Source: a virus
Taxonomy: Duplodnaviria; Heunggongvirae; Uroviricota; Caudoviricetes
DNA length: 32,856 bases
Strand: one strand, 5' to 3'
IMG/VR virus record: IMGVR_UViG_2526164692_000012
Part shown: positions 3,298-31,167 of the stretch, piece by piece
Numbering within the stretch: position 1 is the first letter of the stretch
How the letters are laid out: each line of letters opens with the position of its first letter
Translations under genes and position numbers: made by a program
The notes under the pieces: generated by a model
What the model was told of the DNA's origin: nothing
Seen by the model: the letters and a program-made list of their open reading frames with translations, nothing else
Database searches by the model: none

Positions 3298-3372
3298 GTC
3301 CTCTTAGTTAAATGGATATAACGAGCCCCTCCTAAGGGCTAATTGCAGGTTCGATTCCTGCAGGGGACACCA
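3298..3372 (+). tRNA. argW: tRNA-Arg (anticodon CCU), argW
   Basis: 75-nt sequence GTCCTCTTAGTTAAATGG...GGTTCGATTCCTGCAGGGGACACCA with anticodon loop CUCCUAA, T-loop GGTTCGATTCC and encoded CCA end. Confidence 0.92.
3358..3372 (+). repeat. attL core: 15-bp CTGCAGGGGACACCA at the tRNA 3' end, repeated at 31153..31167
   Basis: Exact 15-bp direct repeat; the left copy is the 3' end of argW next to the integrase gene, the right copy follows a torI-like excisionase gene. Confidence 0.75.
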
Positions 3373-3533
3373 TTTATCAGTTCGCCACCATCCGTACTAG
3401 TCCGCAAAATCCCCTGAATATCAATCCTTCCGTATATTCACGGTTCGTCATGGTTCGCGTCAGATCGTTGACAGCCGCACTCCATGACGGGTAAAAAGTG
3501 GATAAAATAATTTTACCCACCGGATTTTTACCC

Positions 3534-4691
3534 ATGCTCACCGTTAAGCAGATTGAAGCAGCAAAGCCGAAAGAAAAACCATACCGCCTACTCGATGGTA
3601 ATGGCCTGTACCTTTATGTCCCTGTGTCAGGGAAAAAGGTATGGCAGCTTCGCTACAAGATTGACGGTAAGGAGAAAATCCTGACCGTAGGAAAATATCC
3701 GCTAATGACTTTGCAGGAGGCAAGGGATAAAGCATGGACTGCGAGGAAAGACATCTCGGTTGGCATCGATCCGGTAAAAGCGAAAAAGGCTTCGTCTAAC
3801 AACAATTCCTTTAGTGCGATTTACAAGGAATGGTACGAGCACAAGAAGCAAGTCTGGTCAGTAGGCTATGCAACTGAACTTGCAAAAATGTTTGATGACG
3901 ACATTTTACCTATCATCGGCGGCCTTGAAATTCAGGATATTGAGCCGATGCAACTGCTGGAAGTAATCCGCAGATTTGAAGATCGCGGTGCAATGGAGCG
4001 AGCCAACAAAGCCCGCAGAAGATGCGGCGAGGTTTTCCGTTACGCTATTGTCACTGGTAGGGCTAAATATAACCCGGCGCCTGACCTTGCTGACGCCATG
4101 AAGGGATACCGCAAGAAGAACTTCCCGTTTCTTCCTGCAGACCAGATCCCTGCATTCAACAAAGCACTGGCAACATTTTCAGGAAGTATCGTATCGCTCA
4201 TTGCCACCAAGGTTTTACGCTATACAGCCCTCAGAACAAAAGAGCTTCGTTCCATGCTATGGAAGAACGTCGATTTTGAAAACAGGATTATCACCATTGA
4301 CGCCAGTGTGATGAAGGGACGCAAAATTCATGTGGTCCCGATGTCAGACCAGGTGGTTGAACTTCTCACTACGCTAAGCTCAATCACCAAACCAGTATCA
4401 GAGTTTGTTTTTGCCGGGCGCAACGATAAGAAGAAGCCGATCTGCGAGAACGCGGTGCTGCTTGTGATCAAACAAATCGGCTATGAGGGTCTGGAAAGCG
4501 GTCACGGATTCAGGCATGAATTCAGCACGATTATGAACGAGCACGAATGGCCTGCTGACGCTATTGAAGTGCAACTGGCACATGCCAACGGCGGATCTGT
4601 GCGCGGGATTTACAACCATGCACAGTATCTCGATAAGCGCAGAGAAATGATGCAGTGGTGGGCGGACTGGCTTGATGGTTTAATAGTTTAA
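3534..4691 (+). CDS. intS: Tyrosine integrase (IntS/KplE1-CPS-53 type), 385 aa
   Basis: Adjacent to argW; sequence from MLTVKQIEAAKPKEKPYRLLDGNGLYLYVP matches my recall of K-12 IntS; C-terminal catalytic region with HxxR and Tyr context. The ORF track starts 12 codons earlier (3498); I place the start at the Met giving 385 aa. Confidence 0.85.
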   Translation: MLTVKQIEAAKPKEKPYRLLDGNGLYLYVPVSGKKVWQLRYKIDGKEKILTVGKYPLMTLQEARDKAWTARKDISVGIDPVKAKKASSNNNSFSAIYKEWYEHKKQVWSVGYATELAKMFDDDILPIIGGLEIQDIEPMQLLEVIRRFEDRGAMERANKARRRCGEVFRYAIVTGRAKYNPAPDLADAMKGYRKKNFPFLPADQIPAFNKALATFSGSIVSLIATKVLRYTALRTKELRSMLWKNVDFENRIITIDASVMKGRKIHVVPMSDQVVELLTTLSSITKPVSEFVFAGRNDKKKPICENAVLLVIKQIGYEGLESGHGFRHEFSTIMNEHEWPADAIEVQLAHANGGSVRGIYNHAQYLDKRREMMQWWADWLDGLIV

Positions 4692-4720
4692 TAGTTTAAT
4701 AGTTTAATAGTTTAATAGTT
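4681..4720. repeat. Perfect tandem repeat (TAATAGTT)x5 overlapping the integrase stop codon
   Basis: Five contiguous identical 8-bp units; the int stop (TAA, 4689..4691) lies inside the array. Confidence 0.95.
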
Positions 4721-4919
4721 TCAGTCCAATATTACATTTTAGCATTGCAAACAAATATTCACTCACGCAACGGTTAATTAAGAAGCAACCAAGTAATCTT
4801 AGTGATGATGTTTCAGAATGATGAGTAACAAATCGTTAAATCAAGTATTCGATGCTAGTGTTTTGAGCCTCTTTAGCTGATATTATTGTCGTTTACTCTA
4901 CTTTACATTGAATTGTTTG

Positions 4920-6830
4920 ATGACCATGACTACACGATATAGATCTGATATTGATGGCCTACGAGCACTTGCTGTCCTTCTTGTTTTTGCTTATCACCTC
5001 AAGCTATCACCTTTTAGTGGCGGCTTTATTGGTGTTGATGTCTTCTTCGTTATCTCTGGATTTCTTATCACTGGTATTGTTATAAAAGCTATTGACAGAA
5101 ATAGTTTCTCATTATCTGACTTCTTTAACAGAAGAATAAAGAGAATAGTACCAAATGTTTTTTTAGTTGCATCTTGTACAATTATAGCCGGATGGTTCAT
5201 CCTATTACCAAAGGATTATTCTTCACTTATTAGTAGCTATTTGTACACATCCATCTACGCTGCTAACTTTTATTTTTGGAAAGCGACAGGAGCTTATTTT
5301 TCATCTTCTGCAGATGAGATGCCACTACTTCATATGTGGTCATTGGCCGTAGAGGAGCAATATTACTTTATATGGCCAATTATTATTTTACTTGCACTAA
5401 AGCACATTAAGACAAAACATATTGGTGTTATTACATTAATAATTTCAGTATTTGCCTTTATATTCTCTGAAATAATGGCAAGGCGTTACGCTGGGTTCTC
5501 ATATTATATGCCAATCACACGCTCTGGAGGCTTGCTTCTAGGGTCCGCCCTAGCATTAATGAATAGAGATTATAAAAAAATAAGGGAGTTTAATTCTTAC
5601 ATAGTAGTAATATTAGGAACTATTCTTATTGCGGCATCATCTGTAACAGTGAACAAATTATCAGTGTTTCCTGGGTTAAATTCTGCGATACCATCATTTG
5701 GTGCAATGTTAGTAATTTTAGGGGGGAACGGGTTTAATGGCAATGTGATATCAAAAATCTATGGTTCAAAAATAATATCCACAATTGGATTGCTATCATT
5801 CTCAATATATCTTTGGCACTGGCCGTTGATTGCATATTCAACATATATGGGAGTGATAGACTCACTTGAAGTCAAATTGACAATAGTACTCCTGACATTT
5901 ATTTTATCATATTTAAGTTTAAAATTCATTGAGAATCCAATAAGAAAATCAAAAATATCATTTGTTCGTTCTTTTATTTTTATTAACACATTTTTTATTG
6001 CAACTGCTTTTATTGTGTTGTTTATGTCAACTATAACAAATGGCTTCAAATTCAGAAGTGTAGGAGAAAATCATAATTTAGATGTGAAATATGCTGGAAT
6101 GGACGAAGGATGGTGTCATGTTAGCGCAGAAGGAAAAAATGGCATAACTTTTAATGAGTCTATGGCCAAATGTTATATAGGTGATAAAACATCAAATAAA
6201 GAAGCTCTATATATTGGTGATTCCAATGCAGGGCATTACGGTCCATTTGTAGATGAAATGGGTCGCAGGGCTGGAATAAAAATAAATCAACTGAGCACTT
6301 CATCTTGTTACCCAACAAGAGAAGTTAAGAAAGATGGAGAAAACCCTGATGTCTGCATAAACTTCAGAAGAATAATTAATGAAAAAATAAAATCTGGTAA
6401 ATATGATACAATTATCATTGCTAATAGATGGGCAAGGGATGATAAGAATATGTCATATAAAAACGCTAACTTCACCGAGTTCCTATCATTTTACTCATCT
6501 CACGCAAAGAAAGTTATTATTATGGATCAAATGCCTGAGTGGGTAATAAATCCCGCTGCCTGCTACGAGAGAGGAACATGTGATGCTGAAACTAATTTTG
6601 ATCTAGCACCAGGATTGGATGAGTCGCGTAAAAAAATAGAAAGCGCAGCATCACATTTTAATAATGTTTATCTTGTTGACCCGTACTACCTAATGCTTAA
6701 GAATAAAAAATACACACCTTTCGCAATGGGATACCCTATGTACCATGACAATGGTCATTTAAGCATCAATGGAATGATGTGGATTGCGGAAAAATACTTG
6801 CAAGATAATAAAAACCCACTTGAAGATTAA
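4920..6830 (+). CDS. Membrane O-acyltransferase, acyltransferase-3 domain fused to a C-terminal SGNH-like domain (OafA/Oac-like O-antigen acetyltransferase), about 636 aa
   Basis: N-terminal region with about 10 hydrophobic helices and the AT3-type start RSDIDGLRALAVLLVFAYH; long hydrophilic C-terminal domain; strongly AT-rich; occupies the int-proximal serotype-conversion slot of P22-like phages. Start codon uncertain (TTG 4908, ATG 4920 or 4926). Confidence 0.7.
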   Translation: MTMTTRYRSDIDGLRALAVLLVFAYHLKLSPFSGGFIGVDVFFVISGFLITGIVIKAIDRNSFSLSDFFNRRIKRIVPNVFLVASCTIIAGWFILLPKDYSSLISSYLYTSIYAANFYFWKATGAYFSSSADEMPLLHMWSLAVEEQYYFIWPIIILLALKHIKTKHIGVITLIISVFAFIFSEIMARRYAGFSYYMPITRSGGLLLGSALALMNRDYKKIREFNSYIVVILGTILIAASSVTVNKLSVFPGLNSAIPSFGAMLVILGGNGFNGNVISKIYGSKIISTIGLLSFSIYLWHWPLIAYSTYMGVIDSLEVKLTIVLLTFILSYLSLKFIENPIRKSKISFVRSFIFINTFFIATAFIVLFMSTITNGFKFRSVGENHNLDVKYAGMDEGWCHVSAEGKNGITFNESMAKCYIGDKTSNKEALYIGDSNAGHYGPFVDEMGRRAGIKINQLSTSSCYPTREVKKDGENPDVCINFRRIINEKIKSGKYDTIIIANRWARDDKNMSYKNANFTEFLSFYSSHAKKVIIMDQMPEWVINPAACYERGTCDAETNFDLAPGLDESRKKIESAASHFNNVYLVDPYYLMLKNKKYTPFAMGYPMYHDNGHLSINGMMWIAEKYLQDNKNPLED

Positions 6831-6853
6831 TTGAGTTATAATTTTTATTGGTA

Positions 6854-30747: not shown

Positions 30748-30810
30748 TTTATTTATTCATATATGAAAACAATGTAACCAATATTCGAATTGAAGAACTG
30801 AAAGAACACC

Positions 30811-30837
30811 AAGCCGCCTGATGGCGGTTTTTTATTG
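30811..30837 (+). terminator. Intrinsic terminator at the end of the early-left array
   Basis: CCGCC-TGAT-GGCGG hairpin followed by TTTTTTATT. Confidence 0.65.
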
Positions 30838-30878
30838 CCTGATTTGCAGGTTCGATTCCCTATTCGGAGATAGCACTC

Positions 30879-31079
30879 ATGCAACACGAACTACAGCCTG
30901 ATTCACTGGTTGATTTGAAATTCATCATGGCTGATACTGGCTTCGGTAAAACCTTCATCTATGACCGGATTAAGTCCGGAGACCTGCCTAAAGCCAAAGT
31001 TATCCACGGGCGAGCAAGATGGTTATATCGTGACCATTGTGAATTCAAAAATAAGCTCTTAAGCCGCGCCAATGGGTAA
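30879..31079 (+). CDS. torI: Excisionase / recombination directionality factor, TorI-like (AlpA family), 66 aa
   Basis: 66-aa ORF next to attR with winged-helix-like core (TGFGKTFIYDRIKSGDLPKAKVIHGRARW); matches my recall of K-12 TorI in length and N-terminus. Confidence 0.7.
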   Translation: MQHELQPDSLVDLKFIMADTGFGKTFIYDRIKSGDLPKAKVIHGRARWLYRDHCEFKNKLLSRANG

Positions 31080-31152
31080 AATAGCGGGTAAAATATTTCT
31101 CACATCTAAAAAACACCATTCCAATCAATCCCCTGCCGCCTCAAGTAGATGT

Positions 31153-31167
31153 CTGCAGGGGACACCA
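31153..31167 (+). repeat. attR core: 15-bp CTGCAGGGGACACCA (copy of the argW 3' end)
   Basis: Exact repeat of 3358..3372; flanked by non-tRNA sequence. Confidence 0.75.

Follow-up and report, generated by a model that had tools for sequence, protein, structure and literature searches.

Phages and prophage remnants that integrate at the 3′ end of the tRNA gene argW carry a recombination module composed of attL, the integrase gene intS, the excisionase gene torI and attR, which Panis et al. found to be highly conserved in the Escherichia coli K-12 remnant KplE1 (CPS-53), in phages HK620, Sf6 and CUS-3, and in numerous argW prophages. TorI is 100% identical in HK620 and Sf6, and the core of the attachment sites is CTGCAGGGGACACCAT (Panis et al.). 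Work of the same group on KplE1 established that the intS promoter overlaps attL, that IntS and TorI each repress intS, and that TorI switches on excision. TorI- and IntS-dependent excision has been shown for KplE1 and HK620 substrates. Here we analyze a stretch of 32,856 nucleotides (IMG/VR record IMGVR_UViG_2526164692_000012, hereafter the window) that holds a prophage with this module at positions 3358 to 31167. Positions 1575153 to 1608008 of NC_018658.1, from E. coli O104:H4 str. 2011C-3493, match the window in reverse complement at 100% identity, and the RefSeq annotation of that record names both end genes, intS and torI.

The element has been described before. Ahmed et al. (2012) listed it as prophage B, with Sf6 as the best match (51% coverage, 97% identity), and scored it as missing from strain 2009EL-2050. 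Scholl et al. located the German outbreak strain's tailspike gene in a prophage remnant bearing a deletion, reported that a complete prophage is apparently present at this locus in strain 55989, and pointed out an acetylase gene (EGR74046) adjoining the tailspike gene. We assign the block, with a probability of about 95%, to prophage B of Ahmed et al. (2012), a defective Sf6-like (P22 family, Lederbergvirus-type) prophage of E. coli O104:H4. It is an ordinary and previously known prophage, as its Sf6 affinity, remnant status, tailspike and acetylase have all been published. As a discovery it has little value, since the O104:H4 2011 outbreak genome has been intensively studied and the literature already treats the layout of integrase and recombination directionality factor (RDF) as a paradigm (Panis et al. 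2007-2012). The locus is of use as a correction, because an integrase and an excisionase at opposite ends are the normal state of argW phages of the Sf6 type, and as a source of nested IS1 deletions that form a clean natural decay series of one prophage.

An Sf6-like prophage inserted in argW

The argW gene, a tRNA-Arg(CCT), was called by ARAGORN at positions 3298 to 3372 on the plus strand, in agreement with the RefSeq tRNA-Arg, and its last 15 nt (3358 to 3372) constitute the attL core, CTGCAGGGGACACCA. This sequence occurs exactly twice in the window, the second copy, at 31153 to 31167 on the plus strand, being the attR core; the insert between the repeats measures 27.8 kb. None of 100 shuffled sequences yielded two core matches, even with 2 mismatches allowed. 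Both the published 16-nt core of KplE1 and the attP core annotated in Sf6 begin with this 15-mer. We then fused positions 2873 to 3372 to positions 31168 to 31667 and searched the resulting 1,000-bp empty site in 5,426 complete E. coli genomes. It was found uninterrupted at 100% identity in many genomes and was at least 80% covered in one place in 1,412 of them; therefore, the boundaries defined by the repeat are the true insertion boundaries. Integration is of the argW type: the element occupies the 3′ end of argW, and a copy of the CTGCAGGGGACACCA(T) core stands at each of its ends. The left flank carries yfdF, mlaA, yfdC and argW (RefSeq). The bacterial side of attR (31168 to 32856) belongs to the csc sucrose-utilization locus and contains a cscB-type transporter gene, while K-12 has dsdC there. 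The core repeat is 15 nt long here versus 16 nt in K-12 because the base that follows the tRNA differs in the csc-type flank.

All of the P22/Sf6-type virion genes, from the small terminase to the tailspike, are intact on the minus strand between positions 6901 and 25015. Starting from the IS1 side, they comprise the small and large terminase genes, which lie with a DUF2560 gene (homologous to Sf6 gp67) at 23166 to 25260; the portal, scaffold and coat genes at 18856 to 23163; a small gp6-like open reading frame (ORF), gp4, gp10, the tail needle gene (gp26) and a gp14-like gene at 15441 to 18813; the ejection protein genes, homologues of P22 gp7, gp20 and gp16, at 11426 to 15438 (matching Pfam Inj_translocase, with Sf6 homology from 14087 on); and a tailspike gene with a head-binding domain. 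These assignments follow RefSeq and homology to Sf6, to which positions 14087 to 24663 are 97.4% identical, including the stretch from 15441 to 18813. The virion genes are 96 to 97% identical to those of Sf6, N7 and HF4s, and every one is equal in length to its counterpart in the intact prophage of strain NCCP15648 described below. A reading of the window made from the sequence only had proposed an Sf6/P22-like prophage in argW, bounded by a 15-bp direct repeat of the tRNA 3′ end and equipped with a complete podovirus morphogenesis module. All three proposals hold: the tRNA call, the core repeat and the Sf6, N7 and HF4s identities bear out the first, the two exact copies and the empty-site matches (a comparison with an empty argW site that the reading had itself suggested) bear out the second, and the intact virion genes bear out the third.

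IS1 and the loss of the immunity, replication and lysis genes

The sequence-only reading did not mention the IS1 element in the prophage, nor the loss of the immunity, replication, Q and lysis region next to it. The IS1 is complete (768 bp, positions 25365 to 26132, minus strand, with insA/insB ORFs and a match to NCBIfam transpos_IS1) and is oriented like the late operon. It stands between the DUF2560 gene and the remnant of an Sf6 gene-33-like ORF, of whose 969 nt only 150 nt at the 3′ end are left (26133 to 26282, plus strand; annotated as a pseudogene in RefSeq). Its flanks, TGTGATGGC and CGTAGAGCA, show no target-site duplication.

Among the 5,426 genomes, a single one, that of NCCP15648 (CP009050), contains the exact undeleted counterpart. 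It has the same prophage at the same site without IS1, and in the place of IS1 it has kept a central segment of 12,552 bp (positions 7449 to 20000 of the extracted locus, L003), so that its gene-33-like ORF is full-length (19182 to 20150 of the same locus). This segment encodes a DUF551 protein, an Rz-type lysis protein, lysozyme, holin, tRNA-Thr, tRNA-Asn and Q, followed by the nin genes, the replicative helicase, the replication initiator, cII, cro, a LexA-family repressor and the repressor-cIII interval; the N region also falls within the segment. Consistently, no repressor, cro, cII, N, replication, nin, Q, holin, endolysin or spanin gene is found among the RefSeq genes at 3358 to 31167. 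An Sf6-type Lederbergvirus genome would be complete with an immC repressor and cro, replication genes, Q and a lysis cassette; as the immunity, replication, Q and lysis genes are absent here, the element is a defective prophage of the P22-like family and not a functional member of it. The intact NCCP15648 prophage is 39.6 kb long, versus 27.8 kb here. Apart from the deletion, three single-nucleotide polymorphisms (SNPs) and one unit of an 8-bp repeat distinguish the two copies. All three SNPs are nonsynonymous and fall in the tailspike (7352), the gp16-like ejection protein (12643) and the portal (23013) genes; with so few changes, no case for relaxed selection can be made.

The exact IS1 junction of the window was found in 11 complete genomes, which by name are O104:H4 strains or reference stocks. 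Two further strains share the right end of IS1 but have other left junctions, at a point corresponding to window position 9242, inside ant, in strain 1070/13 and to position 8615, inside the tailspike gene, in 2009EL-2050. O104:H4-type strains thus contain three nested deletions with a common right junction at 26132/26133 and left endpoints at 25364, 9242 and 8615. All three retain intS, the acetylase gene, the early-left genes and torI; the recombination module is kept in 3/3, an intact tailspike gene in 2/3, and the virion genes only in the smallest deletion. An 11-kb remnant is retained even in 2009EL-2050, in contrast to the “missing” score of Ahmed et al. An intact IS1, the lack of a target duplication, one fixed junction and a second junction that varies among relatives are the features of IS1-mediated adjacent deletions, and the retained 768-bp element, the absent duplication and the single fixed end make this an unexceptional case. 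From this junction structure we infer that an IS1 adjacent deletion caused the loss. That IS1 inserted first and the deletions followed, as opposed to a single event, is suggested by the shared junctions only.

The IntS/TorI module and its attachment sites

The module occupies both ends of the prophage. On the left, the phage arm of attL (P′; 3373 to 3533, plus strand) is identical to that of K-12 at 152 of 161 positions, corresponds to the region that overlaps the intS promoter in KplE1, and holds three GTTCG motifs as well as GGGTAAAA/TTTTACCC motifs. It is followed by intS (3534 to 4691, plus strand; RefSeq intS), which begins 161 nt beyond the tRNA in the same orientation, which makes the attL arm its upstream region. 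IntS is a tyrosine integrase of 385 aa that has an arm-binding domain at its N terminus as well as central and catalytic domains (Pfam Arm-DNA-bind_3, Phage_int_M and Phage_integrase). Residues 1 to 381 are identical to K-12 IntS, while the last four differ (GLIV versus EKVE in K-12). These four residues are encoded by a tandem repeat of the 8-bp unit GTTTAATA (5.5 copies, 4678 to 4721, plus strand), which was detected by Tandem Repeats Finder and spans the intS stop codon. Homology to both K-12 and Sf6 breaks at 4677, where the repeat begins, and the repeat is one unit shorter in NCCP15648.

On the right, torI (30879 to 31079, plus strand; RefSeq torI) adjoins attR at the end opposite the integrase and ends 73 nt before the core. 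Its 66-aa product, an RDF that PDB entry 1z4h matches over residues 1 to 66, is identical at 66/66 positions to K-12 TorI and to Sf6 gp18. The phage arm of attR (P; 31080 to 31152, plus strand) is identical to that of K-12 at 71 of 73 positions. A terminator-like hairpin followed by a T run (30811 to 30836, plus strand), which was found by scanning and is common to many lambdoid phages, lies just upstream of the torI module; homology to HK022, 434, ST64T and Stx phages stops at about 30837 to 30841. A promoter scan upstream of torI gave nothing convincing. We used the published, primer-defined in vitro substrates to compare the att sites. Here 211 of the 220 bp of the attL substrate of Panis et al. 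are identical, as are 110 of 112 positions in the phage portion of attR, counted from the primer site attR-IHF2 through the core; the reconstructed attP is identical to that of Sf6 at 242 of 249 positions. Both halves of the module are common in E. coli: intS was found with at least 80% coverage in 1,860 of the 5,426 genomes (about a third), and torI with the attR arm in 1,402 (about a quarter).

The placement of intS beside attL and of an RDF beside attR, as read from the sequence, is therefore right, although the gene described there as “torI-like” is torI itself, 100% identical. The arrangement that had been called “KplE1-type architecture” is likewise real, but it is no peculiarity of KplE1, being native to Sf6, HK620 and CUS-3. 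In the GenBank record of Sf6, the attP core (18099 to 18114) lies between the integrase gene (16781 to 17938) and the TorI gene (18188 to 18388), so any Sf6-type prophage has its integrase and RDF at opposite ends. The intS-torI module is also present in siphoviruses, namely HK633 and Erwinia phage vB_EhrS_49, the latter agreeing in gene order and in the 16-nt core.

At 19 nt upstream of the torI start codon, 16 nt of the argW T arm (positions 3343 to 3358) are repeated exactly (TTGCAGGTTCGATTCC, 30844 to 30859, plus strand). No such match arose in 100 shuffles. Conserved in K-12 KplE1 and Sf6, the 16-mer is the first element and left edge of the E. coli/Shigella module, and homology to other lambdoid phages ends just before it. 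The tRNA copy abuts the att core directly and shares the first base of the core (C3358), whereas the phage copy is about 290 bp away from the core, beyond torI and the P arm. The 16-mer contains the GTTCG motif, of which the attL arm holds three copies. Because the module of Erwinia phage vB_EhrS_49 lacks the 16-mer, the latter is not essential to the module; we rejected the idea that it is a universal module feature for this reason. The 16-mer may be a relic of the origin of the torI-attP-intS order, e.g., of an ancestral tRNA identity block of ~30 nt that was split by torI and the arm, or it may be an operator through which TorI or IntS controls torI; we put forward both ideas as speculative and rather unlikely.

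Alternative interpretations

The block had been interpreted as a less decayed relative of KplE1/CPS-53, which would make KplE1 a later stage of decay of the same lineage. The integration site is indeed the same, the intS-attL and torI-attR modules are nearly identical, and both elements have a cell surface modification gene immediately downstream of intS. We ran the comparison with K-12 CPS-53 and with Sf6 that had been proposed as a check: Sf6 shares the virion genes and the module, and K-12 shares the module only. By blastn, the window has only two matches in K-12 positions 2464500 to 2479000, one running from the chromosomal flank through the tRNA and attL into intS up to position 4677, and the other covering torI and attR (30829 to 31167). 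The KplE1 interior (yfdG to ypdJ) gave no blastn similarity to window positions 4678 to 30828, and the gtr-type glucosylation genes and tail-fiber-assembly genes (tfaS, yfdK) of KplE1 have no counterpart here. Moreover, since the module is also present in the siphoviruses HK633 and vB_EhrS_49, it is an exchangeable mosaic unit and not a lineage marker. Judged by their sequences, the window prophage and KplE1 share this exchangeable module, about 1.7 kb, and nothing else. The interiors being unrelated, the proposed kinship fails; we rejected KplE1 as a further-decayed copy of the window prophage and consider a common lineage very unlikely.

Two other readings fare even worse than KplE1 kinship. 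The T-arm copy inside the element, upstream of torI, could be taken as a sign that the block is composite, with two elements in tandem at argW. The window, however, contains only two core copies, free phage Sf6 and K-12 KplE1 both have the 16-mer in the same position, so that it is part of the module, and the NCCP15648 copy is a single collinear genome of 39.6 kb with normal Sf6 organization. A composite is thus extremely improbable, and we rejected it. Least probable of all, to the point of being negligible, is a temperate phage of the Sf6 type that is still whole and inducible. In its favor, the virion genes, intS and torI have all been preserved intact, as have the two att sites, but gene content refutes it: the immunity, replication, Q and lysis genes are absent between the att sites, all of them are found in the NCCP15648 prophage in precisely the stretch that IS1 replaces, and 27.8 kb is well short of the length of the intact copy. 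A defective Sf6-like prophage remains the reading that accommodates these observations, and the sequence offers no evidence against it.

Proposed history and present behavior

From the anatomy of the locus and the published identical module, IntS would have recombined the core of a phage attP with the last 15 to 16 nt of argW. With attP lying between torI and intS, integration would place intS at attL and torI at attR, and intS would read away from the tRNA from a promoter predicted inside attL. By analogy with KplE1, IntS is expected to be produced constitutively at a low, self-repressed level, and TorI to trigger excision with the assistance of integration host factor. An IS1 and a deletion extending from its left end removed the 12,552 bp, as the comparison with NCCP15648 shows. 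Having lost N, the early-left promoter, the repressor, Q and the replication and lysis genes, the prophage is predicted to be incapable of induction, replication, normal activation of the late operon and host lysis. Judging from this gene content, it should be unable to form phage.

In the intact phage, the terminator at 30811 to 30836 is presumably read through by antiterminated early-left transcription. As torI lies behind it, the gene is probably poorly expressed in the remnant, which would keep the element stable. Given the near-identity of every component to the KplE1 module, the element can probably still excise as a dead-end circle provided that TorI is made, and excision and loss of the element would be expected, as in K-12, if TorI were supplied. 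Besides the recombination module, the prophage retains the O-antigen acetylase, the tailspike, the immI-like genes, all virion genes and the early-left genes. Of these, the acetylase, immI-like and lipoprotein genes may still serve the host.

Acetylase, tailspike, immI-like region and early-left genes

Downstream of intS, positions 4920 to 6830 (plus strand) encode an AT3-SGNH acyltransferase, a putative O-antigen O-acetylase and thus a candidate lysogenic conversion gene (Pfam Acyl_transf_3 and SGNH; PHROG O-antigen acetylase). The gene has a G+C content of about 33 to 35%, and no near match to it was found in the phage collection. The tailspike gene follows at 6901 to 8880 on the minus strand. 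Its 659-aa product combines a P22-type head-binding domain (Pfam Head_binding, residues 1 to 113) with an O104-specific receptor-binding part; Scholl et al. found the 659-aa tailspike to be O104 specific and functional in a pyocin fusion. Positions 7311 to 8505, the receptor-binding part of the tailspike gene, are 88% identical at the DNA level to the gene for the tail fiber of phage CLB_P1 (T7-like, Kayfunavirus), so that one O104-type receptor-binding module is common to a temperate P22-like phage and a virulent phage. The acetylase and tailspike cassette (4920 to 8540) was found in 24 of the 5,426 genomes, and its carriers include named O104:H4 strains, 55989, NCCP15648, NCCP 13905, MRE162 and NCTC9104.

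Between the tailspike and ejection protein genes lies an immI-like region with genes on both strands (8981 to 11411; assigned by Pfam/PHROG and RefSeq). It consists of ant (8981 to 9859, minus strand), arc (10092 to 10232, minus strand), an mnt-like Arc-family gene (10338 to 10589, plus strand), a hypothetical gene with a 104-aa ORF (10586 to 10900, plus strand) and, in the position of P22 sieA, the gene for a lipoprotein of 161 aa (10926 to 11411, plus strand). The region has been kept although the primary repressor, the would-be target of Ant, has been deleted. On the other side of IS1, the early-left genes at 26307 to 30747 (plus strand; RefSeq and phage matches) comprise cIII, kil, erf, abc2, genes for DUF5405 and DUF2737 proteins, ead/Ea22, a gene with a pyrophosphohydrolase domain, and eag.

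Comparison with known systems

Strain 55989 has the same intS, acetylase, tailspike (99.7%) and head genes as the window, while its immI and ejection protein segments differ. We considered 55989 as the intact ancestor, and found this to be only partly true, as its prophage is a mosaic relative with a different immI region and different ejection genes.

KplE1 resembles the window prophage in its integration into argW, its core and its nearly identical intS-attL and torI-attR modules, and both prophages are defective and without a repressor. It differs in its size (10.2 kb), in the lack of a virion module and in its unrelated interior genes. For the KplE1 module, experiments have demonstrated excision, protein binding sites and intS autoregulation.

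The closest phages are those of the Sf6 group, i.e., Sf6 (NC_005344), HK620, CUS-3, N7 and HF4s, which have the same attP/argW core and the same torI-attP-intS order. The Sf6 proteins TorI and IntS are 100% and 98% identical to those of the window, the virion genes, gp12 homologue through terminase, show 97.4% identity, and a serotype-converting acyltransferase gene lies between the integrase and tailspike genes, as it does here. Relative to Sf6, the tailspike of the window has a different, O104-specific receptor-binding part, its AT3-SGNH acetylase is different and longer, and the window possesses an immI-like ant/arc/mnt region that Sf6 does not have. Finally, the immC, replication, nin, Q and lysis region of Sf6 is missing from the window because of the IS1-linked deletion.

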